Source: a virus. From it: DNA of 64,000 bases. Below are positions 391-24,886 of this stretch, piece after piece (positions within the stretch are counted from its first letter, which is position 1; each line of letters starts with the position of its first letter). The notes under the pieces were generated by a model that was not told where the DNA came from, did no database searches, and worked only from the letters and a program-made list of their open reading frames with translations. The position numbers were made by a program, and so were the translations under genes. The stretch is from the IMG/VR virus record IMGVR_UViG_3300043436_004687, positions 71,099-135,098 of that record. One strand, written 5' to 3'.

Positions 391-897
391 TTATTTAATA
401 TAATTATTTTTTATTGAATCTACAATATATTGACTATGCTCTAAATGAAAATGGGTTGCATAACCAATAGAAACATGAAAACCATAATAAGGATCACCCA
501 AACCAATTTCCTTTCTTAAATCCATTAAAAAAGCGTTTTCAAGTAATTTAAAATACCAATGTTTACCATCACTCCTACAATCTAAATTTAATTCGACTTC
601 AACCTCAACATTTTCGTATTTTTCTTTTATTTCTTCCCAGTTATTACGTTTAATTTCGTCATTTTCACCCATTAAATCATCTATTCTATCATTGATGAAT
701 GTGATGTGAGTATTTCTAAGTGGTTTGTTTAAAACAATGTTATATCTTTTTTTGATAAACCAACTATAATAAGAACAAAAATCATCATTATCAAATAAAA
801 CCATAGCAATAACTTTCCAAGAAGATTGTAAAATATGTTTATTAGTCTTATCTTCTGGGTTAAAATGAATTTTACCTTTTAATTTTAATGTACTCAT
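391..897 (-). CDS. putative 2H phosphoesterase superfamily protein (LigT/CPDase-like)
   Basis: Two H-x-[ST]-x motifs (THITF and FHVSIGY) about 77 aa apart. The promoter motif gcaaatata lies just upstream at 905-913. Confidence 0.4.
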   Translation of the reverse strand: MSTLKLKGKIHFNPEDKTNKHILQSSWKVIAMVLFDNDDFCSYYSWFIKKRYNIVLNKPLRNTHITFINDRIDDLMGENDEIKRNNWEEIKEKYENVEVEVELNLDCRSDGKHWYFKLLENAFLMDLRKEIGLGDPYYGFHVSIGYATHFHLEHSQYIVDSIKNNYIK

Positions 898-930
898 AAT
901 TAATGCAAATATAATATTTTTTATTTAATA

Positions 931-961
931 AACAAAAAAAATCCAATATTAAATACTGGAT
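931..961 (-). terminator. rho-independent terminator (hairpin atccaatatt/aatactggat flanked by A/T runs)
   Basis: Imperfect 10-bp inverted repeat preceded on plus by an A9 run, which is a U-run on the minus strand. It lies just downstream of the gene at 969..2558. Confidence 0.5.
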
Positions 962-968
962 TTCTATT

Positions 969-2558
969 TTAAATAAATGTGGTGAATTTACCCTTGATTA
1001 TATTAACATGTGAAGCCTTACCATTTTTGTAGATAACAACATTTGAATGTAACCAACCAGAAGCACCTTTATTGTACCCCACTCTAAGATGGGTTAAAGT
1101 ACCAACACATAATGCACCATCTAATCTATTGGGTACGTGTGAATGACCAGTAATATTTTTAACTGGTAGATTCTTTAATTGTGTAGGGCTAGATCTAGAA
1201 CCGTGCACCCCGATATGACCATGTATTGAAATTTCAAAATCTTTTATTTTACAGCCCTCATCAATACCCAAAGCTTTAACGTTAGTTAACTCGGTTTCAA
1301 AAATATAGGGCACTATACCTTTGGGGGCTTTTCCATCCGCCAATAAACTAGCAAATTTTAAATATAAGAATTTATTATTACTTTTTCTCCAATCATCATT
1401 ACAAAGCCACCTATCAATAAATTCACAATGGTTTGATCTTACGGCAATAAATCTGTAAGTGGGGTAAGATTTAAACCAATTTAAAACAGTGTCTATCTCT
1501 TTCTTCAAAGACCAAGAACCATCCTCTTCTCTTTTTAATAATTGAAAAGGATCTTTCTTCTCATGGTGACTAATTGAATGTGAATTAATTGGGTCGTGCA
1601 CCACTATTTTTTTTGTATTTACTATTTCAGCTAATTTAAAAGAAGCATCAACAGCATTTTCATCATGCTCTGTTATATGCAGATCACCAAAGACAATAGC
1701 TTCAGCGGTTTTATTTGGGCGAGTGACTTTACCATCCTCAACAAGATACATTAAATCATAAAAATTACCTCTTTTATCTGCTGTAATTTGACGTATGTGA
1801 AATATTTCTTCGTCTAATTCAACTATAACACACCCTATTTGATGATGAAAAGCTGATTTTGCCCCAATTGCTGTGTCGGTGTAATTTTCAACAGATACAG
1901 AACCAGTCGTAACTAATAATTTATTAGGGTAACCCTCCACAACTGGCAGAGATTTTAATTGTACTCTTGGGTGGCCTATAATACAACTTTCCAGCCCAGT
2001 AATGCCATTTAACCCAGTGGTTGGTATTGAAGCAGTTGGTTGAATTTTTACGTCAGAGAGAACTACTAAATGTTCATGTAAGTTATGTCTATTTGCATCT
2101 AAATACGGTAACACTGATTTATCCCAACTATTTTTTAAGTTTTTTTCTTTATTTTTAATGGAATTACTAGAAGATAAAGATGTTGGGTTTTTATATCGGC
2201 CAGCAATAATAAGAATGTCTGCATCTATTTCTTTAGCATAAACCTCCATATTTTTAAGAAATTTACTATGGACAGCAGTTTCGCTTTGACACCAAGATAT
2301 TAAAAACCTTTTCTTAGATGTATCGTGTTGTTTGTTTTGAGCTTCTTTGAATACATCAGTATCTTCGACTTTAGCAACATTGTTAGTAACCCCTAAAGTT
2401 TGCATTTTTTTCCTCATACCCCTCCCAAAGGTATCATCATCAAATTCTAATTTAAAATGTTTACACATTTTTCTAGTTGCTTTGGTAACTTTTTCACCAT
2501 CTTCAACTAATTTTTTAACGTATTCTACCCACTCTGGTAAATATTTCTTTTTACTCAT
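969..2558 (-). CDS. calcineurin-like metallophosphoesterase
   Basis: Motifs FGDLHITEHD (GDxH), RSNHCEF (GNHE-like), HGHIGVHG and TGHSHV (GHxH). Confidence 0.55.
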   Translation of the reverse strand: MSKKKYLPEWVEYVKKLVEDGEKVTKATRKMCKHFKLEFDDDTFGRGMRKKMQTLGVTNNVAKVEDTDVFKEAQNKQHDTSKKRFLISWCQSETAVHSKFLKNMEVYAKEIDADILIIAGRYKNPTSLSSSNSIKNKEKNLKNSWDKSVLPYLDANRHNLHEHLVVLSDVKIQPTASIPTTGLNGITGLESCIIGHPRVQLKSLPVVEGYPNKLLVTTGSVSVENYTDTAIGAKSAFHHQIGCVIVELDEEIFHIRQITADKRGNFYDLMYLVEDGKVTRPNKTAEAIVFGDLHITEHDENAVDASFKLAEIVNTKKIVVHDPINSHSISHHEKKDPFQLLKREEDGSWSLKKEIDTVLNWFKSYPTYRFIAVRSNHCEFIDRWLCNDDWRKSNNKFLYLKFASLLADGKAPKGIVPYIFETELTNVKALGIDEGCKIKDFEISIHGHIGVHGSRSSPTQLKNLPVKNITGHSHVPNRLDGALCVGTLTHLRVGYNKGASGWLHSNVVIYKNGKASHVNIIKGKFTTFI

Positions 2559-2562
2559 TTAT

Positions 2563-2898
2563 TTATTTTATTAATTCCATATAAGTTGGGGCTGGACAAA
2601 TCCCCAGTGTGAATTCATCAAAATGGTCATATTCATTCCCAACTTCAATAGCACCATTATCTAAAGCAGATTGTAAATCAACAAATTCTTCTAAGACCTT
2701 TTCCAAATAAAATTCCTCATCGGATAAAACATAATCTTCATTATCATCATACATTTCCCTATTAATACAATACCACTCTCTAGTTTCACCCTTAACAAAT
2801 TTTTCGTTAGATTTATTTAATTCCAACGATTCTAAAAGAGGTAAATGATTTAATTTTTCATTTAAACACTTTTCAGCAAATTTTTCTCTTAATCCCAT
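2563..2898 (-). CDS. hypothetical protein
   Basis: 111-aa ORF in the minus-strand gene array, tightly packed with its neighbours. Confidence 0.45.
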   Translation of the reverse strand: MGLREKFAEKCLNEKLNHLPLLESLELNKSNEKFVKGETREWYCINREMYDDNEDYVLSDEEFYLEKVLEEFVDLQSALDNGAIEVGNEYDHFDEFTLGICPAPTYMELIK

Positions 2899-3679: not shown

Positions 3680-3684
3680 ATAAA

Positions 3685-6069: not shown

Positions 6070-7464
6070 TTATTTTAAACCCATTGCTGCATTATATATT
6101 TCAACACATTCTTCAAAAGAATTAGCCTCTGTTTTATCAGTTCTAAATTCTTTAAATGCTGGAAAAAATACTGAATTACCACCATTGGAATTAGATGAAA
6201 GACCATTACATTTTATTTCAACTATTGTGTTTAATAAAGAATCTTGGTTTTCAGTTACATAAACCATCATATTTTCTTTCAAACCTTGAGCCTTAGCCGA
6301 TAATTTGCCGCAAGAACTCTCACAATATATTGTAGATATTACATGCTCATTTTTAGTACCCCTTTTGCCATAATTAAATGCTTTCGCTACTAAATCTAAA
6401 CTAATTTCAATTTTTAATTTAATTTGGTAATTATGTTTACCATTCTTCCAAACACCATCAAGACTTTTTAAAACAGTACCCTCCTCACCCCTTTCCAAGG
6501 CTTCAGAAAAATGTTGCATAGCTTCTTCGTAGGTTTTAACAAATCTATGTTCAACTATTGATATTGAAATTGAATTTGAAAGAATTGATTTTAATCTATT
6601 TAACCTATCTATTCTAATAGTGGGGGAGTACCCTAAGTAATATTCTTCGACATCAATTATATCCCAAACTTTTAACTCAACTAAAGATAGGGCTTCCTCA
6701 ATAGTCATACCCTTTTCTTTAATGAATTTGTTTATTTTTTTATTTGTCTCTTCTTGCGTTCTATCGGCTTTTTTATTTTCAATATCTATAATAGATGCAA
6801 TTATACCATTGCTTTCTAATCTAGATATCCCCTTCATAACTATTTCACAATTTAAAACACAATCATCTAACTTAGATAATTCTTCAACTAAATCACAATT
6901 ACCAATAAAAGAATTCTCACCAGATCTACCTTCCATTTCAACCTCATGATTAAAAATAATGATATTTAAATATTTACCATCCGCTTTTAATTCACTAATA
7001 CAAGTAGCGTTATTTTCAAATAAAGCATTAGCTTTTTTTACATCAAATGGGATACAACCCATATAATTAGTTTTTTCAACCAATGATGGAAATACTTTAT
7101 TAATTAATGTGGTCCCCAAATTTATTTTACAATTCTTTTCAATTATTCGCTCTATAATGTAAGCATCATCAACATCAAGACTATTTAAAATAGATGTTAA
7201 CCACTCTATAGCTTGATGACCAGTAAAAGTTCTATCAATCAATTTATCTAAATTGCTTAAAGCATCCTCTAATGAAATATGTTCAAAATTAGAATCAAAT
7301 TCATATTCTGGTATTTGCTTTATATAAAACTTAACCCTTTTGGAGTTAGCAAGATATAATACTCTTTCAAGCAACTTATTATCTTTATATTCATTAAGAA
7401 TTTCTATTTTCTTATTGGTTGATGATTCATTTGCAATCTCATCAAAGATTTGTTTTATTTTCAT
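6070..7464 (-). CDS. ATP-dependent ligase (nucleotidyltransferase superfamily; DNA ligase-like, an RNA ligase role is not excluded)
   Basis: Motif I ELKADGKY (ExKxDGx), motif III-like DCVLNCEIV, motif IV EGTVLKSLDG, motif V YQIKLKIE. Confidence 0.6.
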   Translation of the reverse strand: MKIKQIFDEIANESSTNKKIEILNEYKDNKLLERVLYLANSKRVKFYIKQIPEYEFDSNFEHISLEDALSNLDKLIDRTFTGHQAIEWLTSILNSLDVDDAYIIERIIEKNCKINLGTTLINKVFPSLVEKTNYMGCIPFDVKKANALFENNATCISELKADGKYLNIIIFNHEVEMEGRSGENSFIGNCDLVEELSKLDDCVLNCEIVMKGISRLESNGIIASIIDIENKKADRTQEETNKKINKFIKEKGMTIEEALSLVELKVWDIIDVEEYYLGYSPTIRIDRLNRLKSILSNSISISIVEHRFVKTYEEAMQHFSEALERGEEGTVLKSLDGVWKNGKHNYQIKLKIEISLDLVAKAFNYGKRGTKNEHVISTIYCESSCGKLSAKAQGLKENMMVYVTENQDSLLNTIVEIKCNGLSSNSNGGNSVFFPAFKEFRTDKTEANSFEECVEIYNAAMGLK

Positions 7465-8295
7465 TTATATTAAATTTAAAATTGAATTTCTATCTTTGCC
7501 AAACATGGGAGTTTCAACAACCTCCCATTTACTTCTTATTGGTTTATTACATTCATCGCAAATATTAGTACAAATTTCAGTTTGGAAATTTAAACAATTT
7601 TCACCTAAACCACCATAGGTATTCTTAACAATAAATGAACCTCTTTTCTTACTCCAATGTAAATCATTCCAATTGTGTCCTTTTTTAAAACACATTTCTT
7701 GCATATCAGAAGTATTTTTCTTATGTAATTCAGTATGGGAATATAAAGATTGTGCAAGCATTGCAACAGAATTCTTTTCAGCATCTCTTTGTCGCCAAAT
7801 GAGCATATTTACAACCTCTTCTTTTTCAGGAATTTGAAATACTCGGCTATCAAAGAAAGCTAATTTAGAATCAGTCATTATTTCTTCATAACTAATTGCA
7901 CCACCATATTCAACATCTTCAACTTGCCTACTCAATCTCAATTGATTAAACTTAGCCGTAGCTAAAGAAGCTGAAATACTTGTCATCTTCTGTACATTAT
8001 AATCAAACCAAGCTGATGTTTCTAATTTATCATAATCAGTTAAAACAAGTGTTATTTCATCACTTTGGGAAAATCCAAATTTACAACCTTGAATATTCTC
8101 ACACAAGAACTTAGTAGTTTCTTGCATATCTTCAATAAGTCCTTCATCAAATGGTCTATTCAACCCCTTAGTATAAGTGTGAAATGCTTTCCCATCCAAT
8201 CTAATGATAGTTGGCATTCTTCTGGTTAGAAATTGCTTATTTCTATTTTCATAATTTTCTTTAATTCTTTTTGAAAGAGCTGTATTATCTGGCAT
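7465..8295 (-). CDS. Thg1-like protein (tRNA-His guanylyltransferase / 3'-5' nucleotide polymerase family)
   Basis: IIRLDGKAFHTYTK, FGFSQSDEITLVL, AFFDSRVFQIP and LIWRQRDAEKNSV match conserved Thg1/TLP blocks. Confidence 0.7.
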   Translation of the reverse strand: MPDNTALSKRIKENYENRNKQFLTRRMPTIIRLDGKAFHTYTKGLNRPFDEGLIEDMQETTKFLCENIQGCKFGFSQSDEITLVLTDYDKLETSAWFDYNVQKMTSISASLATAKFNQLRLSRQVEDVEYGGAISYEEIMTDSKLAFFDSRVFQIPEKEEVVNMLIWRQRDAEKNSVAMLAQSLYSHTELHKKNTSDMQEMCFKKGHNWNDLHWSKKRGSFIVKNTYGGLGENCLNFQTEICTNICDECNKPIRSKWEVVETPMFGKDRNSILNLI

Positions 8296-8642: not shown

Positions 8643-9398
8643 TTAATAATTAAACAAATCTTCTTTATATGCAAATTCAGTCCATTCCTCGCCTAATTTA
8701 GAAACCCTAAAACCTAAACCCCTATTAGGTGATTCTGCAATAGATTCAACTGTTACAACACCATTCCTTTTAGGGTTATTAACAGTTTTCCAATAATAAG
8801 TTTCACCAATTACTATTTCTTCTGGTCTTCCAATACATACATATCCAGTCATTCGATATAATTCATCAAACATATCCTTGAATCTAATATCAAATAATTG
8901 TTTTCTAAATTCATGCATTTCTTTAGCATAACCAGAAGCCATACCACTACCTTTTGATGTTGAATATTTTACGTTAGCTAATCTATCACAAATTTTATCA
9001 AATGTTGCCAAACCAATGGTTTCATAACAATCTCTAATACCTTGATAGTATTTATCGTTTGCACGTTCTTTTCTAGTTTTACCTTTTTCATTTGTCAACG
9101 CATAAGTAATTTCTGCCACCACTTCACCACAAGCATCTTTAACGTTGTTGTATGTTTGCATTGTATCCTCAATAGTATCATGAGTATATGCTCCAGCAAT
9201 AGCATACCCAACATATTCTTGTGGCAATAAATAAGCGTATTTAACAGCGTATTCTTTAACCATTTCAATATGTGTATAAACATATGGTTTACCATCGTAT
9301 TTATGGTTTACAGCTTCGTGACATTTAATTGCATAATCTCTAGATTTATCAATCAATTCTAAAGACTCAATAAGTGTAAGTGGTTTAATATTTTCCAT
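8643..9398 (-). CDS. HD-domain phosphohydrolase
   Basis: H...H...THDTIEDT HD motif arrangement (KCHEAVNH, YTHIEMV, AYTHDTIED). Confidence 0.5.
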   Translation of the reverse strand: MENIKPLTLIESLELIDKSRDYAIKCHEAVNHKYDGKPYVYTHIEMVKEYAVKYAYLLPQEYVGYAIAGAYTHDTIEDTMQTYNNVKDACGEVVAEITYALTNEKGKTRKERANDKYYQGIRDCYETIGLATFDKICDRLANVKYSTSKGSGMASGYAKEMHEFRKQLFDIRFKDMFDELYRMTGYVCIGRPEEIVIGETYYWKTVNNPKRNGVVTVESIAESPNRGLGFRVSKLGEEWTEFAYKEDLFNY

Positions 9399-10620: not shown

Positions 10621-11055
10621 TTATGATTTACATTTACAATTCACACAAGTGCCACATTCACTTTCAGTTAACTTAACAAATATATTTAAATTTATTAAAG
10701 ATTGGTAAACTTCTTTATTCCATTTACCAAAACTACCCTTAATTAATTCATCAAATGTTGTGAATTTAACTACATGTGGTTCTTTTTCAAAATCAAAATT
10801 AATTTCACCAGAATAATCAGCTAAATAAGTGTAACCCATTCTACCACCCTTAGATTTTGCATAAACCAATCTCAAATTATCTATTTTTAAACCAGTTTCT
10901 TCAAATGTTTCTCTAATGGCACCTTCCTCTGGTGAATTATCAAAATCTTCTAAAGACCCACCTGGTAAACCAAAATCATTATGGTCATTTTTTCTTGAAA
11001 CACCTAAAACATAACCCCCTGGGTTAATTAAAACTACTTGTACCGTACCTATCAT
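10621..11055 (-). CDS. NUDIX hydrolase
   Basis: Nudix box GPGGYVLG...EEGAIRETFEETGL (GX5EX7REUXEEXGU). Confidence 0.7.
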   Translation of the reverse strand: MIGTVQVVLINPGGYVLGVSRKNDHNDFGLPGGSLEDFDNSPEEGAIRETFEETGLKIDNLRLVYAKSKGGRMGYTYLADYSGEINFDFEKEPHVVKFTTFDELIKGSFGKWNKEVYQSLINLNIFVKLTESECGTCVNCKCKS

Positions 11056-12771: not shown

Positions 12772-13086
12772 TTATATTATTTTAATTAAATCACCTTCAA
12801 TTAATGAATTATCTTGAAGATTATCGATATGAATCATATTATCTTTTTTAAACACAACTACTTTACCACTTTCTTTATTGGTCGGATTGAACATATCACC
12901 CTTCAATTCTATTACCACACCTGAATTATCATCCAATAATAATGATATGGTTCTTGCAAATATTAATGAACTGTTAAGCCAATCTTTTGATTCATCTTTA
13001 TGAGTTTTATCATTTGGTTTGGTATAATTAACATTAGAACGATTTTCTAATTCATTTTTTAATTTCTTTTCAATCATTTTTCTCAT
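12772..13086 (-). CDS. hypothetical protein
   Basis: 104-aa ORF. Confidence 0.4.
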   Translation of the reverse strand: MRKMIEKKLKNELENRSNVNYTKPNDKTHKDESKDWLNSSLIFARTISLLLDDNSGVVIELKGDMFNPTNKESGKVVVFKKDNMIHIDNLQDNSLIEGDLIKII

Positions 13087-13516
13087 TTATTAAATATTTT
13101 TTAATTTCTTCCCAATTATCAAATTTATTACCAACCCCAAAATGTAACAATTCACCCTCAAATTCAGTTTGCCCATCATTAAGACAATCGTCAATTAGGT
13201 AATCACCCTTAACAAGGCTCTTATCACTACATATTATCAACTTTTGACAGAAATCTAAACCAAAGTACTTCTCAACCCAAATTCGCTTCTCTGTGTAACA
13301 TAATGGATTAATATATGAAGCTCTGGTTAAAATCCAAACATCATAATAATTCATCAACTCTTTAACACTTTCTATGGCATTCTCAATAGGTTCAAGATTA
13401 GCAAAAAAACCCCAATTTGATTGGGGAAATTTATTTGTTTCTTCATTATAATATTTTCTATAAGAACCAATGAAATCGGCTAATGTACCATCAATATCTA
13501 TAAAAAGTCTTTTCAT
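13070..13516 (-). CDS. HAD-superfamily 5'(3')-deoxyribonucleotidase-like (NT5C family)
   Basis: FIDIDGTLADF (DxDGT) N-terminal motif and C-terminal GDYLIDDC block. Confidence 0.55.
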   Translation of the reverse strand: MKRLFIDIDGTLADFIGSYRKYYNEETNKFPQSNWGFFANLEPIENAIESVKELMNYYDVWILTRASYINPLCYTEKRIWVEKYFGLDFCQKLIICSDKSLVKGDYLIDDCLNDGQTEFEGELLHFGVGNKFDNWEEIKKYLINEKND

Positions 13517-14111: not shown

Positions 14112-15014
14112 TTAATTAGTTATTTCGGTTGCAACACCATTTAATTTTATTTCTTTATCTAATTTAACCCAATTAGTTATTTTATTACTATCAAATGGTT
14201 TCCCACCCTCTTTTCTATTTACTGCTAATGTTATATGTGGTATTTTATTTTCAACTGGGAACCCATTTACCATTACAGCAATAGCTAAATCTGAAGTGCC
14301 AAAATGTGTTGCATTTAATTCAACATTACCACCCAACCTTTCTTTTAAATCTTCTGGAAACCCCTTACCAAAAGCAACAGTTAAATGATGCGCAATAACT
14401 TCCCAACCTTCAGGTATATTATCACCTAATTTAATTAAAAGATTGCTTCTAGATGGGTTATCTAAAACTATCGCAGAATACAATATCTTTTTTTGTTTTT
14501 CGCCAGCGGTTTCCACAATTCTTTTAACTGTTAATTCACCACTATTTTTATAAGTTTTAAACATTTTTATAATAGTATCTAAATCAACACCATGAGTATT
14601 TCTATCAGCTAATTCATGTAGAGTTTTACCACCAGTCCCAATGTCAATAATTTTTATATTATCTTCATTAAATCCCATATTTAAAGCAGCTTCTATATAT
14701 GGTCTAGCATCACCAATTTTTATATTGGTGATGTCGATTATTATTGGGCTTACACCTTGTTTCATTGAAGTGATAGCATTATTTAAATTGATTGAATGCA
14801 TTTTCCCATGATTGGACCAATCATTAGTTTCTTTCATCAATCTAAAATGTTTAGCATAATCACCACGTTCTGAAATAACGTCATCTGTTGAGTGAATAAT
14901 CCCCTCACCAACTAATTGTTTAGCTTGTGTTGATTTAGATGAACCTGGGAGACCACGCATTATGATAAGTTTTTGATCAGGTTTTGTAATTTCTATATTA
15001 AGTATGTTTTTCAT
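14112..15014 (-). CDS. polynucleotide 5'-kinase (T4 Pnk-like P-loop) fused to a 2H cyclic phosphodiesterase domain (RNA end-healing enzyme)
   Basis: N-terminal Walker A GLPGSSKST, as in T4 Pnk GxPGSGKST. The C-terminal half has two HxTx motifs (IAHHLTVAF and IPHITLAV). Confidence 0.6.
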   Translation of the reverse strand: MKNILNIEITKPDQKLIIMRGLPGSSKSTQAKQLVGEGIIHSTDDVISERGDYAKHFRLMKETNDWSNHGKMHSINLNNAITSMKQGVSPIIIDITNIKIGDARPYIEAALNMGFNEDNIKIIDIGTGGKTLHELADRNTHGVDLDTIIKMFKTYKNSGELTVKRIVETAGEKQKKILYSAIVLDNPSRSNLLIKLGDNIPEGWEVIAHHLTVAFGKGFPEDLKERLGGNVELNATHFGTSDLAIAVMVNGFPVENKIPHITLAVNRKEGGKPFDSNKITNWVKLDKEIKLNGVATEITN

Positions 15015-15348: not shown

Positions 15349-16506
15349 TTAGATTGCTCGAACCGAGCAATTTTTTAATTTAGTTAAATTTACCCCAATT
15401 GGTTTAAATTCATCAAAATATATTTTTCTTATATTAATAGCACCATTTATATCTCTATCAATATTTAATTCACAATAAGTACAGTTATATTCCCTATCAG
15501 TTACCTTCAATTCATATTTAACTCTACCACAACAACTACATGTTTTACTTGTGTATTCTTCATCAACTATTTTTACTTCTTTACCATATTTTGTAGCCTT
15601 ATAATTTAATAAATTAACAAATGTTGTTATACTAGATTTAGTATAACTTTTTGATATATTATTTTGCTTTTTACTACCATCTTTCTTAATTAAATTACTT
15701 ACTTCTAATTTACCTATAACTAATATATCTTCATTTAAATTTTTAATATATTTTATTGACTCTTTATGTAAATAATCATTACAACTATTTTTTAATTTAG
15801 TGTAGGCTTTATTTAATTGTTTTTTAGTTTTATTTCTGTTTTTAGAACCCTTCTTTTTCTTACTTAAACTAATATTTAGTTTATTTATTCTATTATTATA
15901 ACTATTAATTAAATTAACACTAAATCGTTTTATTTTAACACCGTTGCTGTCAGTTAAAAGTGTTTTTAAACCTAAATCACAACCTATAACATTAGTATTT
16001 TTATTTTCTTTTACTCCAATTTCATAATCACAAATAAATGTTAAATAATAACTATTATTTTCTCTAATTAATTTAACCGTTTTATATTTAGTAGGAAATA
16101 GTTCTGTTCCTTTAAACCCTTTTTTTAATTTAGGCAAATAAACTAAATTATTTTTAACTCTAACATCAGTCTCAACAAATTCTATACTATTAAAATTATC
16201 TTTGCCTTTAAATTTAGGAAACCCCTCACCTCTAAAGAAATTATTAAATGATTTATCTACTCTAAATATTATTTCAGATAATGATTTGTTAGGCACATCT
16301 TTCCAAGATGTATCATAATTTTTAATATCAACTAATTCTTTCTTTTGTTCAAATTTATTTAAATATTTACCAGTTGCTTGATAATACCATATTTTTTCTT
16401 GTAAAGCTACATTATAAAGATAATTACATTTTCTTAACCAAAAATCAAATTTTTCTTTATCTGTTTTAGTTATAATTAATTTAATTTTCTTTACTAGATT
16501 CATCAA
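15349..16506 (-). CDS. tnpB: TnpB (OrfB) RNA-guided nuclease family protein with an intact zinc finger
   Basis: RuvC-I GCDLGLK, RuvC-II DEEYTSKTC, zinc finger CSCCG...CTYC, RuvC-III DRDINGAINI. Confidence 0.8.
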   Translation of the reverse strand: MMNLVKKIKLIITKTDKEKFDFWLRKCNYLYNVALQEKIWYYQATGKYLNKFEQKKELVDIKNYDTSWKDVPNKSLSEIIFRVDKSFNNFFRGEGFPKFKGKDNFNSIEFVETDVRVKNNLVYLPKLKKGFKGTELFPTKYKTVKLIRENNSYYLTFICDYEIGVKENKNTNVIGCDLGLKTLLTDSNGVKIKRFSVNLINSYNNRINKLNISLSKKKKGSKNRNKTKKQLNKAYTKLKNSCNDYLHKESIKYIKNLNEDILVIGKLEVSNLIKKDGSKKQNNISKSYTKSSITTFVNLLNYKATKYGKEVKIVDEEYTSKTCSCCGRVKYELKVTDREYNCTYCELNIDRDINGAINIRKIYFDEFKPIGVNLTKLKNCSVRAI

Positions 16507-17101
16507 TTATATTTTTTAATTTTTCTTTATTTTTATAGCTTCTTAAACCATAAAGTCTTGACGAAAATACGTGTATAATTGACATAAGGTCATTTATCAT
16601 TTCTTCTTGTGGTGATAATTTTTCTTCATCGATTATAATTAATTCTACATTATTTTCTTTACATAAATTTTCAATTAATTCAAATCCAAATCTAACTAAT
16701 CTATCTTTATGAGCAATTATTAATTTATTTATTTTTTGTGTTGTAATTTCATTTATTAATTTTAAAAAGTATTTTCGTTTATAATTTAGTCCAGAACCAA
16801 TATCTGAATATAGTTCTGATATATTGATTTGGTTTATTGTACAATAGTTTTCAACAAATTCTATTTGTGTTTTCAAATCATTTTTTTGTGAATGTGATGA
16901 AACTCTACAATAGCATATTGTTTTTAATTCAATTAGTTCGTTTAATGGTTTATTAATATAATTTAGATATTGTTTATGCGAATATATTTTTCTCCCTTTA
17001 GGTGTAGTTATATCAGGTTTAAGAATATTTAAATTATCCCATCTTTGTATTGTTCTAATGTGAACATTTAATAGTTTAGCAAATTTACCACTTGAATACA
17101 T
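16481..17101 (-). CDS. tnpA: IS607-type TnpA serine recombinase with an N-terminal MerR-like HTH
   Basis: HTH FAKLLNVHIRTIQRWD followed by the catalytic YCRVSSHSQKNDL. It overlaps tnpB by 26 nt. Confidence 0.75.
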   Translation of the reverse strand: MYSSGKFAKLLNVHIRTIQRWDNLNILKPDITTPKGRKIYSHKQYLNYINKPLNELIELKTICYCRVSSHSQKNDLKTQIEFVENYCTINQINISELYSDIGSGLNYKRKYFLKLINEITTQKINKLIIAHKDRLVRFGFELIENLCKENNVELIIIDEEKLSPQEEMINDLMSIIHVFSSRLYGLRSYKNKEKLKNIIDESSKEN

Positions 17102-17316: not shown

Positions 17317-17550
17317 TTATTCATCTTTTTTAAATGTGTTAGTAAATAAAAATGAATTTACCACCAAAAGAAATATTGTCCCTAACATCACCACAATTAA
17401 TTTCAATAATATTATAAATGGTAATAAAATTGAAGATAGAAACGTAAATTTATAATTAACTATTGTTTCATAAAAACCCCATTTAAGGGCTATAAAAACC
17501 CCAATAACATATATAAAATATAGTAAATATTCTGCTATAATTTTTCTCAT
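17317..17550 (-). CDS. hypothetical membrane protein
   Basis: 77 aa with two hydrophobic helices. Confidence 0.35.
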   Translation of the reverse strand: MRKIIAEYLLYFIYVIGVFIALKWGFYETIVNYKFTFLSSILLPFIILLKLIVVMLGTIFLLVVNSFLFTNTFKKDE

Positions 17551-18299
17551 TTAATTTTATTTTCTCTTATTATTTCTTTCATTCTTCTAGCACAAGCCAA
17601 TACATAATCCTTAGAATTAAATCCATAGCTACCTATCGCCCACATGTCATTAACTTCAACTAAATATGTTTTACCATCATTTGAAACACCAACATCTAAA
17701 GTATATGCAGACGGACAATCATTATAACTTGCTATCATCCTAGCAATTCTATTAACATCTGGAAAAACAGTAAAATCACCCAAATAATATTGAATACCTT
17801 TTAATTCACCACTCAACACGAAACATCTAAATTCAGAAACAAATTCCATCACTTCTGATTTAAAAACTTTAGTATCTGCTTTACATTTATCAAAAGTTTC
17901 AAGATAACCTAAGTGAGTTTTACTTTCAATTACACCACCAGTAAACAATTTAACTTGACCCGATGGTTTAACAAAATAAGGAAAATTATTATCTAATTCA
18001 CCAAAAGTAGTTTCAACTATATCTCTACCCAAATATTTTTTAAGAGATTTGGGGTATGATAATGATTTTGGTATTGATATATTATTGATTCTAAAATACG
18101 CTTCTGTTGCTTGAACAGAACCTATTATTAAATCTTCATCAACGTTAAATGATTTATTAAGTAGTGTATTTTCCATATCACTACCATCAAATGGGATTAC
18201 TTTATACCCACGTTCTATTAAAGCTTGTTTGGAAATGTAAACAAAATCATCCAACCACTCATCACCAGCTTTTTCTAAATATGCGTTAGGTTTTGCCAT
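17547..18299 (-). CDS. putative ATP-grasp fold enzyme
   Basis: FVKPSG, EFRCFVLSGEL and YLVEVNDMWAIGSY blocks resemble ATP-grasp motifs. Confidence 0.35.
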   Translation of the reverse strand: MAKPNAYLEKAGDEWLDDFVYISKQALIERGYKVIPFDGSDMENTLLNKSFNVDEDLIIGSVQATEAYFRINNISIPKSLSYPKSLKKYLGRDIVETTFGELDNNFPYFVKPSGQVKLFTGGVIESKTHLGYLETFDKCKADTKVFKSEVMEFVSEFRCFVLSGELKGIQYYLGDFTVFPDVNRIARMIASYNDCPSAYTLDVGVSNDGKTYLVEVNDMWAIGSYGFNSKDYVLACARRMKEIIRENKIK

Positions 18300-18646
18300 T
18301 ACATATCGAGAATAAAATTGCTATTTATTTCAAAGTTCTTATCTGTTAAAATCATTGCTTTAGATTCCACACCACCAATGACACTAGGTTCAAGATTAAA
18401 TAAAAATGGGAATATTTTACCTAAGAAATATTCTGGTTCATGTTTTTCTCCTAAGTTAGTAACCACATTAATCTCAGGAAATTCATTTTTAAATGATACA
18501 TTTAATAACAACAATTTATCTTTTTTAGGTATTCTAGAAGCTGAAGTTATTAAACCTAGTCTAATATCTAATTTTTTTTCTATTTCCAAGAATTCGGAAA
18601 ATGAAATTAATTCTTTTGTTTGCATATATTCTATATTTTTATGCAA
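18299..18646 (-). CDS. hypothetical protein
   Basis: 115-aa ORF. The promoter motif at 18636-18646 suggests the true start may be an internal Met. Confidence 0.35.
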   Translation of the reverse strand: MHKNIEYMQTKELISFSEFLEIEKKLDIRLGLITSASRIPKKDKLLLLNVSFKNEFPEINVVTNLGEKHEPEYFLGKIFPFLFNLEPSVIGGVESKAMILTDKNFEINSNFILDM

Positions 18647-19552: not shown

Positions 19553-19639
19553 TAGGTTTAACTGTCTAGGTAACTGTACACATTCCTAGCAAGACTACCA
19601 ATTTGAAAATAAATTCAGGGAATGGCAACATAATGATGA

Positions 19640-19721
19640 AGAGAGAGGTGGTCGTGACCCACATTCAGTTTCCCGAACCAACAACTTAGCAGGTTGTGCC
19701 TACCCTGGTAGATTCACTCTC
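19640..19721 (-). tRNA. tRNA-Ser (anticodon GCT), class II with long variable arm and an atypical T-loop
   Basis: Manual fold of the minus-strand sequence. Acceptor GAGAGTG/CTCTCTC has one mismatch. Anticodon stem ACAAC/GTTGT with loop CTGCTAA. The variable arm TTCGGGAAACTGAA is shared with the Ser-TGA gene. The T-loop GTCACGA is non-canonical. Confidence 0.45.
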
Positions 19722-19731
19722 CATTTATTTG

Positions 19732-19802
19732 CTCTTCCATCCAGACTCGAACTGGAAATAACTGATTAACAGTCAGACGTGATACCATTTCACTATGAAA
19801 GA
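19732..19802 (-). tRNA. tRNA-Asn (anticodon GTT)
   Basis: Manual fold. Acceptor TCTTTCA/TGGAAGA, D-stem GTGA/TCAC, anticodon loop CTGTTAA, T-arm TCCAG-TTCGAGT-CTGGA. Length 71 nt. Confidence 0.6.
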
Positions 19803-20418: not shown

Positions 20419-20437
20419 AATTTTTAATTTATTTTTG

Positions 20438-20510
20438 TGTCCCTATCAGGATTCAAACCTGAAAAATTTGGTTAGAAGCCAAATATGATATTCATTTTCA
20501 TCATAAGGAC
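20438..20510 (-). tRNA. tRNA-Arg (anticodon TCT)
   Basis: Manual cloverleaf. Acceptor GTCCTTA/TAGGGAC, anticodon stem TTTGG/CCAAA with loop CTTCTAA, T-arm TCAGG-TTTGAAT-CCTGA. Length 73 nt. Confidence 0.7.
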
Positions 20511-20516
20511 TTTTGA

Positions 20517-20599
20517 AGAGAGTGAAGGAATCGAACCCTATTCAGTTTCCCGAATGCACGGATTTCAAGTCCGCTTGACCACCGTTGGTCACCACTCTC
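20517..20599 (-). tRNA. tRNA-Ser (anticodon TGA), class II
   Basis: Acceptor GAGAGTG/CACTCTC, D-stem GACC/GGTC, anticodon loop CTTGAAA, long variable arm ATTCGGGAAACTGAAT, T-loop TTCGATT. Length 83 nt. Confidence 0.65.
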
Positions 20600-20820: not shown

Positions 20821-20891
20821 ATTAATTTATTTTTTTTGCAAATATAAATTTAATTTACTTATCTAACAATAAAATTAATTTTATATTTTAG

Positions 20892-20963
20892 CACAGATAG
20901 TAAGCCAACGCACTTACAACTCAAGTTTTGGAGACTCGTATGATACTCTTTCACCATATCTGT
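20892..20963 (-). tRNA. tRNA-Trp (anticodon CCA), T-loop atypical
   Basis: Acceptor ACAGATA/TATCTGT, anticodon stem CGAGT/ACTTG with loop CTCCAAA, T-stem GTAAG/CTTAC. The T-loop TGCGTTGG is non-canonical. Confidence 0.45.
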
Positions 20964-20970
20964 ATTTTGG

Positions 20971-21045
20971 GGTGGTATATCGGGATTGAACCGATGACCC
21001 TCGGTACCACAAACCGATGCTCTAACCAACTGAGCTAATACCACC
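20971..21045 (-). tRNA. tRNA-His (anticodon GTG) with genomically encoded G-1
   Basis: G-1 plus GTGGTAT/ATACCAC acceptor stem with discriminator C. D-loop AGTTGGTTA. Anticodon loop TTGTGGT. T-arm ATCGG-TTCAATC-CCGAT. Confidence 0.75.
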
Positions 21046-21054
21046 ATATATTAT

Positions 21055-21311: not shown

Positions 21312-22508
21312 TTAACCAAGTGTTACCACTTGACTTGGATAAACAGCAATACCCTCTATTCCATTAGCAAACGCATTTGGAACTGCTTTTCTTAATATGT
21401 TATAACTACCATTTACATCAGAGTTAATAAATTTATTTTCACCTCTAACTTTATACATACCTCGTTTATATCTATATCCACTAAACCCATTTGAATATTT
21501 ATCACCGTAAACTGGTATATAATCTAAATTTAAAAAACTAGCCTTGCTTGTATAACTTTCTTCTTGAAATAATACTTTAATACCGCTTAATAACCCTTTA
21601 TATTGTAACATACTAACTAATTTATCAAATGGTATTGAAACAAAATTTTGGTTGTTTCTCTTTCCCATATTAATTTCTTGTTTCCAAAAATTATTATGTC
21701 CAACAATAATTGTGTTTAATTCATTTTCAAGACACCAATCAATTAAATATTTACTACTTTGATGCAAATAAGTCTCAATTTTATTATTCCTAATTAAACC
21801 TAATTTAATTATTTTAGTGGTAGCTTTTCTTGATTTTAATTCAGCTAATTTTTTATTGAAAAATTGATTTATACTTTTTAATGGTCTACCATTAATAATG
21901 ATTGGTTTAACACCATTCTTATTTGAAGTTATAGTCATTAAATTATTTACCCCTAAATCAATAGAACAATAATTATCATTATTTTCTTTTAGTAATATGT
22001 TTTCTCTTTCATATACAATATTTATTTTAAATTTATTATAATATGGTTTAACTTGTACCTCAATTATTTTTTTATCTATATTTTTAACTTTAATTTGAAT
22101 ATTTAAAGTTGATAAACCAATCAAACCGTTTTTAATATGTTTAGTTAAAACACTATTATCAATAAAAATAGCTGTAAATCTACCATCTTTTTTTAAATAT
22201 TTAGGTAATTTTGGTTTACCTGTGAAACTATTTTTATTTGCTTTATATACTTTAGTTGCTTCAAAAAATCCTTTCCAATTTGCATCAAGTGTTCTAATAA
22301 CACATCTACTAACTCTAGTTGGTAATGCCTTATATTCTGGCAAATCTTTACAAATATTAAACAAATATAGTTTTCTTAACCAATTACCATTAGATATAAA
22401 CTCATTTCTTATAATATAGTTTACAGAATTATATAAGTTTTTAGTTTTGAATGTTAATTCATCTAATTCTTTTGTTTTATTTACAATATGTGATTCAACT
22501 AATTTCAT
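21312..22508 (-). CDS. TnpB-like protein (RuvC D/E/D residues present) lacking the zinc finger; solo copy
   Basis: RuvC-I CSIDLGVNN, RuvC-II QEESYTSKAS, RuvC-III NSDVNGSYNI. There are no Cys residues between RuvC-II and RuvC-III. Paralog of the gene at 25002..26183. Confidence 0.65.
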   Translation of the reverse strand: MKLVESHIVNKTKELDELTFKTKNLYNSVNYIIRNEFISNGNWLRKLYLFNICKDLPEYKALPTRVSRCVIRTLDANWKGFFEATKVYKANKNSFTGKPKLPKYLKKDGRFTAIFIDNSVLTKHIKNGLIGLSTLNIQIKVKNIDKKIIEVQVKPYYNKFKINIVYERENILLKENNDNYCSIDLGVNNLMTITSNKNGVKPIIINGRPLKSINQFFNKKLAELKSRKATTKIIKLGLIRNNKIETYLHQSSKYLIDWCLENELNTIIVGHNNFWKQEINMGKRNNQNFVSIPFDKLVSMLQYKGLLSGIKVLFQEESYTSKASFLNLDYIPVYGDKYSNGFSGYRYKRGMYKVRGENKFINSDVNGSYNILRKAVPNAFANGIEGIAVYPSQVVTLG

Positions 22509-22569
22509 TGTGTATTAATATATACTCCTTTATTATAAATATAAAACATTTTTTAAAAAAATTCAATAA

Positions 22570-22953
22570 TTACGAAGTTTTATCTTCATACAAAACAACC
22601 TTAATTTTTAAACATTTTTGTTTAGCATAACTAACTAAATCCCCAATTACCTTAGATTTACCATCCCAAAAACAAATCAAAGCATCTGCATAATCAACTA
22701 TTTCTTTATTTCTAATTGAAACTGCTGTTAAGTTATATTTATACCAATCTGGCGGGAAATCTTTTATTCTATAATTATTTTCTTTAGCCCAAATTTCACC
22801 AAATTTATCAGGACCTTGAAAACATTTACATGAAATAACTTCAATTTCAGTTTTATTTTTAAGCATAAAATCACAAGTATCCTTTAATAATTTATAATCA
22901 TTAAATCGTCTACCCCCAGTAATAATTACCTTAAACATATATTTTATTATCAT
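22570..22953 (-). CDS. SLOG-family protein (DUF2493-like, GGRR motif)
   Basis: N-terminal VIITGGRRFNDY resembles the phage-associated DUF2493/SLOG family. Confidence 0.4.
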   Translation of the reverse strand: MIIKYMFKVIITGGRRFNDYKLLKDTCDFMLKNKTEIEVISCKCFQGPDKFGEIWAKENNYRIKDFPPDWYKYNLTAVSIRNKEIVDYADALICFWDGKSKVIGDLVSYAKQKCLKIKVVLYEDKTS

Positions 22954-23290
22954 TTGTTACCAAAGTATCAAACTTATTAAAATCAACATCAACCTCATTC
23001 ATTTCCCAATAAGGATTGTTTCGTGGGTTGTATTTTATTTCAATTAAATCTTCAACATTAATTGGTTTGGATAGGATTTCCAATTTTTCACATTCAACCC
23101 AAGCACAAACTCTTTTATTAGCACCATCGAATATTTCTTCAGAAGTTTTTTTATTATTTTTCAATAAACAATTAGTTAATCTAAATGTAACCTCATTCGG
23201 ATTATAATAAAATATTAGTTTACTAGGATATGTTACCTTCCATTTTTTAAAATTTTTACCCCTGGATAAATTAAATCTAACTTTAAACAT
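22931..23290 (-). CDS. hypothetical protein
   Basis: 119-aa ORF. Confidence 0.4.
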   Translation of the reverse strand: MFKVRFNLSRGKNFKKWKVTYPSKLIFYYNPNEVTFRLTNCLLKNNKKTSEEIFDGANKRVCAWVECEKLEILSKPINVEDLIEIKYNPRNNPYWEMNEVDVDFNKFDTLVTNDNKIYV

Positions 23291-23732
23291 TTTGAATTAT
23301 TTCCCTTATTTTCATTATTAATCTACCAAGATGGTTTTCACCTAAATTTGGGTTAGTATTCAAATCAACACCCCAAAATAAATCGTTGTGATAATTACCC
23401 TCTTGTATATTTTGGTTACCAGTTTCAATTAACTTACTCCTAAAAGGTTCTTTATTGAATTTTAATGAGAGACATTCCTCCATAACTTTCAGTTTTATAT
23501 TATCCCAATTATCTACAAATGGTTCCATATTTATTCGTTCTTGAGATAACTTTTTAATATTATATGGGGTTATTGTTTTACTAGTACAAAGTTCTTTCCA
23601 ATCAATAGAATTAAATTTTTCACTCATATAAACATGTTCAACTGATTGGAAAGTTCTACCCTTGTAAGTTATTTCAACCAGAGCCATATTAGATAACCAC
23701 CTAAATTCTGGGTTTTTGAATGAATGGATCAT
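23283..23732 (-). CDS. NADAR-domain protein (YbiA/DUF1768-like ADP-ribose N-glycosidase family)
   Basis: FRWLSNMA...YKGRTFQSVEHVYMSEKF matches the NADAR core (FLSNF...EH.fQ..Kf). Confidence 0.55.
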   Translation of the reverse strand: MIHSFKNPEFRWLSNMALVEITYKGRTFQSVEHVYMSEKFNSIDWKELCTSKTITPYNIKKLSQERINMEPFVDNWDNIKLKVMEECLSLKFNKEPFRSKLIETGNQNIQEGNYHNDLFWGVDLNTNPNLGENHLGRLIMKIREIIQNV

Positions 23733-24886
23733 TAAATTAATTTTTTAAATTCTTCAATTTCTAATTTATTTACCATTTTACCAACTTCTGGACCAGATAC
23801 ATTATATTTGTTAATCACATCCTGACCACTAATACTTAATTTATACTTAATAAAAGCATTTAAGAGATTATTATCTATTTCATGAACTAAATGTCCAAAC
23901 CTTCTTAATTGTTCATCAGATAATCTTATGTTTGATTGTAATTTCTTAGCTAATGGTGCGTTTTCAATTGTTAAACCCAATAAAGAAACTAAAAATGAAA
24001 TTGATTTTACTTCCTCACTTGAATAGGTAAGAGTATTTAACTGTTTTTTTAATAAATCAACAGAATTATTTCTCAATAAAAAAGCTAATAGAATAACATA
24101 ATCCTTTTCTTCAATAAAATCACTATCAACATTCAACCCCCTAAATATTTCTTTAAAGAGATCATATCTTTTATATAAATCCAATAAAAATTTGATTGAT
24201 TGTGCTGATTGAATTGATTTTAATAATTCATCTCTAATTCTTTCATTTGAAACTCCGTTTAAACTAGAATTTTTTAATAATTGTTTATCAACATCCTCAT
24301 CAATTTTTGAGTTATATCTAGCACTAAACCTACAAAATCTTAAAATCCTTAGTGGGTCTTCTTCAAATCTATCTTCTGCTTTACCAACAGTTCTAACAAT
24401 ATTATGTTTAATATCACTAATACCACCAACCAAATCAATTATTTCACCCTTATCAATGTCATAATAAAGAGCGTTGCAAGTAAGATCTCTTCTTTCAGCA
24501 TCGGTGTTTATTGAAACACCTAATTTAACTTCTGGGTGTCTTCCACTAGAATCTGAACGCATAGTTGCTATTTCATATTCATCATTATCGGTGAAAACAT
24601 TGATAACACCGAACGACTTCCCAGTGGCTAATGTTTTATAACCAGATTGTTGTAACATATTTTCAACACTATCTGGTAAAGCATCGGTAACCAAATCATA
24701 ATCTTTTATTTTTTTCCCCAATAAAGAATCTCTAACGGCCCCACCAACAATAAAAATAGAATAATTATTATCTTTAAATAATTTATTCATTTTTTTTATA
24801 TCTTCTGGTACATTTATAGGGAATTTTAATCTAATTTCCCCATTTAAAGCCTCATTAAGCCTTTGCTTTATAAAATTTTTAATCAT
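23732..24886 (-). CDS. tRNA nucleotidyltransferase (CCA-adding enzyme) / poly(A) polymerase family, class II
   Basis: Head domain FIVGGAVRDSLLGKKIKDYDLVT, RRDLTCNALYYD, and neck LRILRFCRFSARYN. Confidence 0.7.
   Translation of the reverse strand: MIKNFIKQRLNEALNGEIRLKFPINVPEDIKKMNKLFKDNNYSIFIVGGAVRDSLLGKKIKDYDLVTDALPDSVENMLQQSGYKTLATGKSFGVINVFTDNDEYEIATMRSDSSGRHPEVKLGVSINTDAERRDLTCNALYYDIDKGEIIDLVGGISDIKHNIVRTVGKAEDRFEEDPLRILRFCRFSARYNSKIDEDVDKQLLKNSSLNGVSNERIRDELLKSIQSAQSIKFLLDLYKRYDLFKEIFRGLNVDSDFIEEKDYVILLAFLLRNNSVDLLKKQLNTLTYSSEEVKSISFLVSLLGLTIENAPLAKKLQSNIRLSDEQLRRFGHLVHEIDNNLLNAFIKYKLSISGQDVINKYNVSGPEVGKMVNKLEIEEFKKLI

Follow-up and report, generated by a model that had tools for sequence, protein, structure and literature searches.

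A putative tRNA end-repair island with a predicted kinase-cyclic phosphodiesterase fusion in a probable metagenomic jumbo phage

The sequence examined here is a 64,000 nucleotide (nt) stretch of viral DNA (IMG/VR record IMGVR_UViG_3300043436_004687, positions 71,099 to 135,098), referred to below as the window. The analysis concerns a block of genes in its first 25 kb which was found to include a predicted polynucleotide kinase fused to a 2H phosphodiesterase (kinase-2H), a Thg1-like protein (TLP), a nucleotidyltransferase (NTase) of the CCA-adding type, an ATP-dependent ligase and a cluster of tRNA genes (Table 1). The window has a base composition of 25% G+C, carries nearly all of its genes on the minus strand and translates cleanly with code 11. 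Five open reading frames (ORFs) of this block, namely those of the kinase-2H, the ligase, the TLP, the NTase and a stand-alone 2H protein, had been named in an earlier prediction made from the sequence alone (the original prediction), and their coordinates were found to be exact, all five lying on the minus strand. The source can reasonably be read as a metagenomic jumbo phage of ~339 kb because of the T4-type DNA ligase, the T5-A1-like protein, the homing endonucleases, a holin gene just beyond the window edge and the large contigs (mostly 125-380 kb) of its relatives. The exact proteins of the block are also found on the JGI metagenome contig 3300042397 Ga0453969_0000002 (339,459 bp), where window positions 1-64000 fall at roughly 219,802-155,803, and this contig is present in NCBI and Logan assemblies as well. 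No relative was detected at the DNA level, as a megablast search with 10 kb of the sequence against 50,697 phage records (INPHARED) gave zero matches.

Table 1. Features assigned in the window, with the evidence for each (aa, amino acids).
Feature	Coordinates	Strand	Evidence and remarks
Predicted kinase-cyclic phosphodiesterase (CPD) healing enzyme	14112..15014	-	Pnk-type P-loop 5'-kinase, aa ~13-170; Trl1-CPD/CNPase-type 2H phosphodiesterase, aa ~175-300
T4-type ATP-dependent DNA ligase (replicative)	6070..7464	-	6dt1, E 9e-40 over residues 3-460; PHROG_114, E 8e-95
TLP of bacterial type, predicted 3'-5' polymerase	7465..8295	-	Pfam Thg1, E 4e-27; PHROG_4717, E 8e-86; BtTLP 4kgk, E 7e-56
Class II tRNA NTase, CCA-adding type	23732..24886	-	PolyA_pol head, E 2e-35, and RNA-binding domain; human TRNT1, E 8e-34
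tRNA-His(GUG), canonical 7/5	20968..21045	-	ARAGORN; Rfam 65 bits; G-1 (21045) opposite C73 and CCA encoded
tRNA-Trp(CCA), atypical T-loop, no encoded CCA	20891..20963	-	Rfam 42.6 bits (gathering 29) with relaxed filters; ARAGORN -ps only
tRNA-Ser(UGA), 8/4, Sec-like	20517..20599	-	Rfam tRNA-Sec 40.8 bits (below gathering 47); ARAGORN -ps80; fold z -3.07
tRNA-Arg(UCU), no encoded CCA	20437..20510	-	ARAGORN; Rfam 55 bits
tRNA-Asn(GUU), no encoded CCA	19731..19802	-	ARAGORN; Rfam 59.7 bits
Ser(GCU)-like remnant or aberrant tRNA, doubtful	19638..19722	-	ARAGORN -ps80 only; no Rfam match at E<=10; fold z -0.19
Trbp111/EMAPII-type tRNA-binding domain protein	18299..18646	-	Pfam tRNA_bind, E 5e-12; stop overlaps R2K start
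R2K-clade ATP-grasp enzyme	17547..18299	-	Pfam R2K_2, E 1e-37
HAD phosphatase, 5'(3')-deoxyribonucleotidase (NT5C) family	13070..13516	-	Pfam NT5C, E 7e-16; human mdN, E 2e-17; DIDGT motif
NUDIX hydrolase	10621..11055	-	Pfam, E 4e-15
NADAR domain protein	23283..23732	-	Pfam NADAR, E 3e-20; abuts CCA enzyme gene
YAcAr (SLOG) domain protein	22570..22953	-	Pfam YAcAr, E 9.5e-13
HD-domain protein, RelA/SpoT (HD_4) type	8643..9398	-	PHROG_990, E 7e-17; NCBIfam spoT_relA, E 3.5e-4; homologue of L006 HD_4 protein
T5 A1-like protein, weak metallophosphoesterase signal	969..2558	-	PHROG_1745, E 1e-132; PHROG_221, E 3e-5; no Pfam match
Stand-alone 2H phosphoesterase	391..897	-	Two conserved H-x-T/S motifs; duplicated alpha+beta fold
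IS607-type insertion	15349..17101	-	Serine recombinase 16481-17101 (Resolvase+MerR) and TnpB 15349-16506 (OrfB_IS605+TNB), Pfam

In the Pfam scans, which covered window ORFs of ~90 aa or more, the kinase-2H protein matched AAA_33 (E 7e-7) and gave a weak match, below the cut-off, to tRNA_lig_CPD, the CPD domain of fungal tRNA ligase (E 1e-3). Within a family alignment of 36 members, tRNA_lig_CPD was matched by 31 (best E 1.4e-6) and no other 2H family of Pfam was matched by any, and T4 Pnk aligned with the family profile across 144 residues. Profile searches thus bear out both halves of the fusion that had been proposed. The residues K27, S28 and T29 of the P-loop, the Pnk-type catalytic D44 and the motifs H209/H210-x-T212 and H260-x-T262 are invariant throughout the alignment, with R138 retained in 35 of the members. 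The Walker A glycine preceding the lysine is replaced by serine (G26S) in the window's protein and its closest homologue only. All other catalytic residues are intact, and no relaxed selection on the kinase domain was seen, its identity to relatives being no lower than that of the 2H domain. The AlphaFold model of the protein is confident (pLDDT 92.7). Sequence searches of the PDB with the 2H domain gave no match, this domain being found by structure comparison alone, and Foldseek also returned the kinase-CPD architecture from giant eukaryotic viruses. Neither a ligase domain (Pfam) nor a 3'-phosphatase domain of the DxDxT HAD type was found in the 300 aa polypeptide.

Phage RNA repair is understood mainly through Pnkp and Rnl1 of T4, which counter the anticodon nuclease PrrC. 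The kinase-2H protein shares with T4 Pnkp an N-terminal P-loop 5'-OH kinase that has both the catalytic Asp and the phosphate-binding Arg. It differs in the 3'-healing domain, which is a 2H cyclic phosphodiesterase instead of the DxDxT HAD phosphatase of T4; the HAD protein is here the product of a separate neighbouring gene, and Rnl1 is not in the window. With the tRNA ligases Trl1 and AtRNL it shares a 2H cyclic phosphodiesterase, bearing two HxT motifs, placed C-terminal to a Pnk-like kinase, catalysis by the phage protein being predicted. Unlike these enzymes it has no attached Rnl1-type ligase domain, the ligase being a separate gene in relatives of this phage. A Tpt1/KptA partner (PF01885) was not found in the scans of window ORFs or in the precomputed Pfam matches of the relatives' neighbourhoods, and a host copy is possible. 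Besides the fungal and plant tRNA ligases, the kinase-CPD arrangement is known from the stand-alone amphioxus PNK/CPDase and from vertebrate CNPase (PMC5434554).

An exhaustive phmmer search of 1.84 billion representatives (2,555 matches) placed full-length kinase-2H proteins in ~10 clusters at 50% identity. When clustered at 90% identity, the family comprises at least 245 clusters, all with full-length alignments of 49-77% identity and mostly on contigs of 100-380 kb. No full-length kinase-2H was found by protein search in the 50,697 INPHARED records, which gave weak matches to the 2H part only, and in cellular genomes (185,579 species) the sole full-length example comes from a phage-like contig of 170 kb that had been assigned to a Methanobacterium metagenome-assembled genome by binning. 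The protein is essentially absent from cellular genomes and common in metagenomic jumbo phages. The combination of genes had been called unusual for a phage; this holds for the fusion with regard to cultured phages, though not to metagenomes, and does not hold for the kit, which has already been described for jumbo phages (PMC7824862). It should also be noted that about a quarter of the family (seen in P0012, P0013, P0016, P0019, P0022, P0024, P0027, P0036, P0043 and P0094) carries an N-terminal extension of ~70 residues with a conserved CxxC...C..H pattern, which looks zinc ribbon-like and is not present in the window's protein.

The neighbourhood of the kinase-2H gene was compared with those of six related phages (L004/L005, L006, L007, L009, L010 and L012), whose kinase-2H proteins are 50-67% identical to that of the window. 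The order conserved in these relatives consists of a CCA enzyme, a tRNA cluster, the tRNA_bind and R2K ATP-grasp genes, a small ORF and kinase-2H, followed by the NT5C-type HAD and NUDIX genes, the RNA ligase(s) and the DNA ligase. The window shares the block order of CCA-type NTase, tRNAs, tRNA_bind and R2K, kinase-CPD, HAD, NUDIX and DNA ligase. R2K lies directly upstream of kinase-2H in L006, L009 and L010, the last two also having the tRNA_bind/R2K gene pair, while the HAD gene is directly downstream in L010 and one gene away in L009. NUDIX is located downstream in L004, L006, L007, L009 and L010, and NADAR was also found nearby in L007. Every relative has 8-16 tRNA genes just upstream of kinase-2H, including His, Trp, Ser-UGA, Ser-GCU, Asn and Arg-UCU, compared with six tRNA-like genes in the window. 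The window further differs by the insertion of an IS607-type element, a GIY-YIG endonuclease gene and a methyltransferase gene, the first of which splits the conserved run of R2K, small ORF and kinase-2H, as its flanking genes are contiguous in L009 and L010.

In all six relatives an RNA ligase gene was found 1.3-9 kb downstream of kinase-2H, with Rnl1 in L004, L006, L007, L009 and L012, and an Rnl2-like ligase together with an HD/AAA_33 kinase in L009 and L010. The Rnl1 proteins are of the T4 Rnl1 type (2c5u, E 6e-9), with no match to fungal Trl1, and are better conserved than kinase-2H, with identities of 61-71% in the 119 best clusters that follow one near-identical cluster (92%). In the window the RNA-ligase slot is empty. 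The KxDG protein which had been proposed as the sealing enzyme aligned end to end with PDB entry 6dt1, deposited as 'DNA ligase', which we take to be T4 DNA ligase, and also matched 5wfy, the entry for the N-terminal domain of the same protein; PF09511 and PF09414 were not matched in the Pfam scan. Since it has this full-length match to the T4-type enzyme, and since relatives (L004, L006 and L012) carry a DNA ligase alongside Rnl1, it is assigned as a DNA ligase outside RNA sealing. The original description as an ATP-dependent KxDG ligase therefore stands and its RNA-sealing role does not, a correction which keeps a DNA ligase from being mis-annotated as an RNA-repair component.

No RNA ligase was detected in the window by tblastn with three Rnl1 proteins, by a maximum-sensitivity search of all six frames with an Rnl1 hidden Markov model (HMM), by phmmer with the Rnl2-like ligase and HD-Pnk proteins (which revealed neither of the two), or by Pfam among 47 further window ORFs. 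The Pfam scans of window ORFs were likewise negative for RtcB, Tpt1/KptA and Macro domains. The 10 kb beyond the window start encode RlaP, an SMC-like ATPase and TnpB, with no ligase. The RlaP gene (PF10127), for an 'RNA-ligase-associated' Pol-beta nucleotidyltransferase, lies at 13536-14636 of L008 (contig 222,441-223,541), ~3 kb beyond the window start. Among the 120 best Rnl1 relatives (identities of 61% or more) none comes from the contig of this phage, which suggests, though does not prove, that an RNA ligase is absent from its whole genome. With no RNA ligase in the window, the heal-and-seal pathway is therefore incomplete here. The original claim that the genes of this stretch would both heal and seal 2',3'-cyclic-phosphate/5'-OH breaks is not supported in its sealing step, as the proposed sealing enzyme is a DNA ligase and the 64 kb hold no detectable RNA ligase.

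The TLP gene is situated directly upstream of the DNA ligase gene, in the position of Rnl1 in L012. Its Thg1-like assignment was confirmed by Pfam and by its closest solved structure, the TLP of Bacillus thuringiensis (BtTLP), human and yeast Thg1 reaching ~1e-4. The match to BtTLP spans residues 10-228 and aligns the RLDG and SQSDE motifs, so that the two proteins are alike in fold and in the RxDG and SDE catalytic motifs. In contrast to BtTLP, the protein is phage-encoded and has a Cys-rich insertion of ~20 residues (aa ~229-250), with four cysteines (CLNFQTEICTNICDEC), which may form a metal-binding knuckle.

For the CCA-type NTase, the GGAVRD, RRD and EDPLR motifs are visible in the alignment with human TRNT1, its best solved relative. 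The NCBIfam models gave 175.8 bits for CCA and 172.9 bits for PcnB (poly(A) polymerase), both below the curated cut-offs. The class II nucleotidyltransferase identity of the predicted CCA-adding enzyme is secure, the HMMs not separating CCA addition from poly(A) synthesis, and the five tRNA genes without CCA argue for the former. The gene forms a tight co-directional run (22570-24886) with those of the NADAR protein, an L5-gp82-like protein and the YAcAr SLOG protein, by which a tRNA nucleotidyltransferase is linked to NAD/ADP-ribose-processing domains.

Of the six tRNA genes that had been predicted, those for His, Arg and Asn were recovered with default ARAGORN and Rfam and that for Trp with relaxed filters, whereas Ser(UGA) is Sec-like (8/4), with the tRNA-Sec model as its only Rfam match, and Ser(GCU) is doubtful, its T-loop being disrupted relative to orthologues in related phages. 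CCA is encoded by tRNA-His only and is missing from the other five. In the Ser(UGA) gene the acceptor stem is 8 bp long, the T stem 4 bp and the D stem 6 bp, the last closed by a tetraloop; the variable arm is long, U73 is present, and the minimum-energy fold is the 8/4 cloverleaf. All of these features are shared with the (8/4) allo-tRNA-Ser reported from phages and bacteria by Mukai et al. (PMC5389517). In contrast to that lineage, the related phages have ordinary class II tRNAs of the 7/5 form as orthologues of Ser(UGA), and the window's 8/4 copy may therefore be a recent derivative and not a member of the established lineage. Long variable arms are normally a feature of Ser, Leu, Tyr or Sec tRNAs. 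Nevertheless, the relatives were found to have tRNAs of 83-94 nt with long, often base-paired variable arms yet with Asn(GUU), Ile(GAU), His(GUG) or Met(CAU) anticodons (L006 1471-1556 and 1778-1867; L007 1024-1117, 3176-3261 and 4455-4542; L010 507-589 and 7877-7967; L012 6503-6595 and 7700-7783). A further tRNA with a CUA anticodon, of the amber-suppressor type and labelled 'Pyl' by ARAGORN, was detected at 2055-2126 of L004, which hints at possible TAG recoding in part of the phage clade.

Domain fusions found in the phmmer survey provide evidence that is independent of gene order. The same 2H domain (40-55% identity) also occurs as solo proteins of 125-140 aa and as part of 34 large ones (510-2,332 aa), 24 of which have in addition a CCA-adding NTase that is a homologue of the one in the window. 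In P0481 such an NTase (E 1e-90 to the window's enzyme) is followed directly by the 2H domain, while P0460 joins a homologous kinase (38% identity) with the ligase domain of an Rnl1. Additional domains are present in several of the large proteins, namely a second, LigT/Acb1-like 2H domain, a GNAT domain, or the HAD_SAK_1 domain of the 'Swiss Army Knife' RNA-repair proteins, which they resemble in combining CCA NTase, 2H domains and HAD_SAK_1. Through such fusions the 2H subfamily is connected with the tRNA 3' end, and the kinase subfamily with RNA ligation, and tRNA end repair is therefore taken as the best reading of the island. The joining of 2H domains to CCA-adding enzymes points to repair of the tRNA 3' end, besides that of anticodon loops.

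The region is accordingly interpreted, on balance and with modest confidence, as the conserved 'tRNA island' of a jumbo phage, which would supply tRNAs and repair broken tRNA ends, with a ligase-less rebuilding of ends in this genome. The domain identities, conserved catalytic residues, gene order and fusions were observed directly, and the steps that follow are modelled on the enzymology of Pnk, 2H/CPD, Thg1/TLP and CCA-adding enzymes. The kinase domain would phosphorylate 5'-OH ends, and the 2H domain would open 2',3'-cyclic phosphates to give 2'-phosphate/3'-OH ends. In the relatives, the break would then be sealed by a ligase of the T4-Rnl1 type and/or an Rnl2-like one, whose genes lie a few kb downstream. 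The empty ligase slot and the added TLP suggest that in this phage the healed ends would mainly be fed to end-rebuilding enzymes. On the 5' side, the TLP would adenylylate the 5'-phosphate and then either refill the acceptor stem by templated 3'-5' addition or return G-1 to tRNA-His opposite C73. The 3' end, once de-cyclised, would pass to the NTase for re-synthesis of CCA, and the same enzyme would be expected to mature the five phage tRNAs encoded without it. The neighbouring HAD protein is a candidate for the removal of a leftover 2'/3'-phosphate, and the DNA ligase would be a replication enzyme with no part in tRNA repair. The tRNA end-repair toolkit of the original prediction thus survives as a tRNA-centred healing and rebuilding island, given the conserved tRNA cluster, the tRNA_bind protein and the fusions, and loses its sealing step.

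A number of points weigh against this interpretation. Neither the 64 kb window nor the adjoining 10 kb past its start yielded an RNA ligase, RtcB or Tpt1/KptA, and the G26S substitution in Walker A could weaken the kinase. The 2H domain would leave a 2'-phosphate, an end that a CCA enzyme or an Rnl1 may not accept, and the proposed HAD step is weak because the NT5C family acts on mononucleotides. A Thg1-like gene was absent within 10 kb from all six relatives' neighbourhoods, so the cooperation of kinase and TLP would rest on family enzymology and not on co-occurrence. Nothing in the analysis singles out a particular host nuclease. Finally, the large carriers of this 2H subfamily include MuF- or ART-containing polyvalent proteins, for which a role as nucleases or in the degradation of signals has been proposed (PMC5512222). 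That role was favoured because the polyvalent and solo 2H versions were reported not to co-occur with RNA ligases (PMC5512222); in contrast, close relatives of these domains adjoin Rnl1 or Rnl2-like ligases at all six loci compared here.

The most serious alternative, although an unlikely one, is that the island represents a counter-signalling kit and not RNA repair, with a kinase that acts on a nucleotide. The two 2H domains and the NUDIX, NADAR, YAcAr-SLOG, T5-A1-like and SpoT-like HD proteins would then degrade the nucleotides of host immunity, namely cyclic oligonucleotides, 2'-5' oligoadenylates, derivatives of ADP-ribose and (p)ppGpp. Such roles have been proposed for phage 2H, A1, NADAR and Nudix proteins (PMC7824862, PMC5512222, PMC9503650). 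A counter-signalling kit would not account for RNA ligases, tRNA clusters and a tRNA-binding protein as conserved neighbours, or for the fusion of the 2H domain to CCA-adding enzymes and of the kinase to Rnl1, although it agrees with the match of sister 2H domains in the large proteins to Pfam Acb1 and with a window that has no RNA ligase. The HD, NUDIX and metallophosphatase proteins had been counted among the RNA-end tools, for which no specific link to RNA ends was found. The NUDIX call itself was upheld by Pfam, and the HD domain is present and of a RelA/SpoT-HD_4-like type (PHROG_990, spoT_relA). The sole metallophosphoesterase-like protein in the range originally described is the T5-A1-like protein. 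The stand-alone 2H protein has the predicted fold with its two H-x-T/S motifs; no sequence link between it and the kinase-fused 2H domain was found by hhalign, and the two belong to different 2H subfamilies.

Alternatively, the genes may serve housekeeping and not defence, and may be neighbours only through a shared auxiliary-gene region, which is considered quite improbable. The CCA enzyme would mature tRNAs and the TLP secure G-1 of tRNA-His, in keeping with the five tRNA genes without CCA and with the G-1:C73 pair of tRNA-His, while NT5C, NUDIX and DNA ligase would serve nucleotide pools and replication and the kinase-2H would act on RNA-decay ends. Bacterial hosts normally provide a CCA enzyme and RNase P-dependent retention of G-1, and a purely housekeeping need for these phage genes is therefore weak. 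The nucleotidase family of NT5C, the identity of the DNA ligase and the many mobile elements, which are typical of accessory regions, would fit this account; however, the gene order is retained across phages whose proteins are only ~50% identical, Rnl1 is kept at 61-71% identity, and domain fusions join the components. A third possibility, regarded as very doubtful, is that repair has been decaying in this particular phage, the remaining genes being on their way out or repurposed. In its favour are the lack of Rnl1, Rnl2-like ligase and HD-Pnk matches in any window frame, the lack of this contig among the sources of the 120 best Rnl1 relatives, G26S, the aberrant Ser(GCU), the IS607, GIY-YIG and methyltransferase genes inserted in comparison with L009 and L010, and the six tRNAs against 8-16. 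Against it are the otherwise intact catalytic residues, a kinase-domain identity no lower than that of the 2H domain, the recurrence of the exact kinase-2H protein on several independent contigs, the gain of an intact TLP and the ~255 kb of genome beyond the region covered, in which a ligase may sit.

A broader and tentative suggestion is that yeast/plant-style '5'-phosphate' RNA ligation chemistry might occur in bacteria within an aquatic jumbo-phage clade, the 2'-phosphate/3'-OH and 5'-phosphate ends made by the kinase-CPD enzyme passing to a T4-type Rnl1 in most members, or here to the TLP and CCA enzyme instead. If this is true, bacterial viruses would have in this protein their first Trl1-type healing enzyme. 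Its activity would also give rise naturally, in bacteria, to RNA ends or junctions that bear a 2'-phosphate, and so to a substrate for bacterial Tpt1/KptA homologues, whose role is puzzling in taxa without yeast-like splicing (PMC6097658). Such phages would further offer a plausible pool of parts (Rnl1, Pnk and CPD) for the assembly of the eukaryotic tRNA ligase. The fusion of a Pnk kinase with a cyclic phosphodiesterase of the Trl1/CNPase type would represent a second, widespread solution to 3'-end healing in phages. The predicted chemistry is unlike that of T4 in that the 2'-phosphate remains, which raises the questions of whether the HAD protein or a host Tpt1 removes it and how far Rnl1 and the CCA enzyme tolerate it. 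If the hand-off from kinase to TLP is real, it would provide a ligase-independent route for repair of the tRNA 5' end.

Jumbo-phage RNA-repair kits directed against host attacks on translation are known to include tRNAs, PNK, 2H, HAD, RNA ligases, RlaP, a CCA-adding enzyme and sporadic Thg1 (PMC7824862, PMC9503650). With the kits of Iyer et al. (2021; PMC7824862) this phage shares tRNAs, PNK, 2H, HAD, a CCA-adding enzyme, the sporadic Thg1, NADAR, Nudix and, outside the window, RlaP. The kit itself is to be expected in a jumbo phage, and the healing chemistry and the missing ligase are its notable part. The fusion described in that study joins PNK to HAD, with a separate 2H protein, in contrast to the PNK-2H fusion found here. 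What is new is the kinase-CPD fusion in bacterial viruses, although an earlier mention of a PNK-2H fusion may exist, together with its consistent pairing with a T4-type Rnl1 in the relatives, the linkage of the 2H domain to CCA-adding enzymes through fusion, and the TLP in the place of the ligase in this genome.

Other features of the region were also noted. The tRNA_bind gene is translationally coupled to R2K (17547-18646), and the pair is conserved. R2K enzymes are predicted peptide or protein ligases (PMC4431377), and the conserved tRNA-binding partner suggests a tRNA-linked, so far undescribed substrate. Four TnpB genes (OrfB_IS605 + TNB) were identified in the window (15349-16506, 21312-22508, 25002-26183 and 33068-34294), the first being paired with a MerR-HTH serine recombinase (16481-17101) as an IS607-type element, and a fifth lies just outside (L008 19102-20244). 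Their mutual identity of 26-54% indicates that they are old or independent insertions. The protein encoded at 3685-4455 (256 aa; PHROG_3668 'hydrolase') is syntenic with the small 2H protein in L012. It was considered as a PTH2-like peptidyl-tRNA hydrolase on account of a GIQFGHA motif (GxQxxHA-like) recognised by eye, which has no support from Pfam, NCBIfam or PDB and is kept as a lead only.

Further into the window, a full-length DnaJ with J, Cys-rich and C-terminal domains is encoded at 29453-30478. The region between 26000 and 56000 also encodes a sigma-70 factor, a DnaG-type primase domain, a Band_7/SPFH protein and a true calcineurin-like Metallophos protein. An SbcC-like protein (45492-47735; PHROG_77, E 1e-30 over aa 126-744) shows weak intein/HINT signals in its first ~125 residues, and its N-terminus may represent an intein remnant or a HINT-domain fusion.

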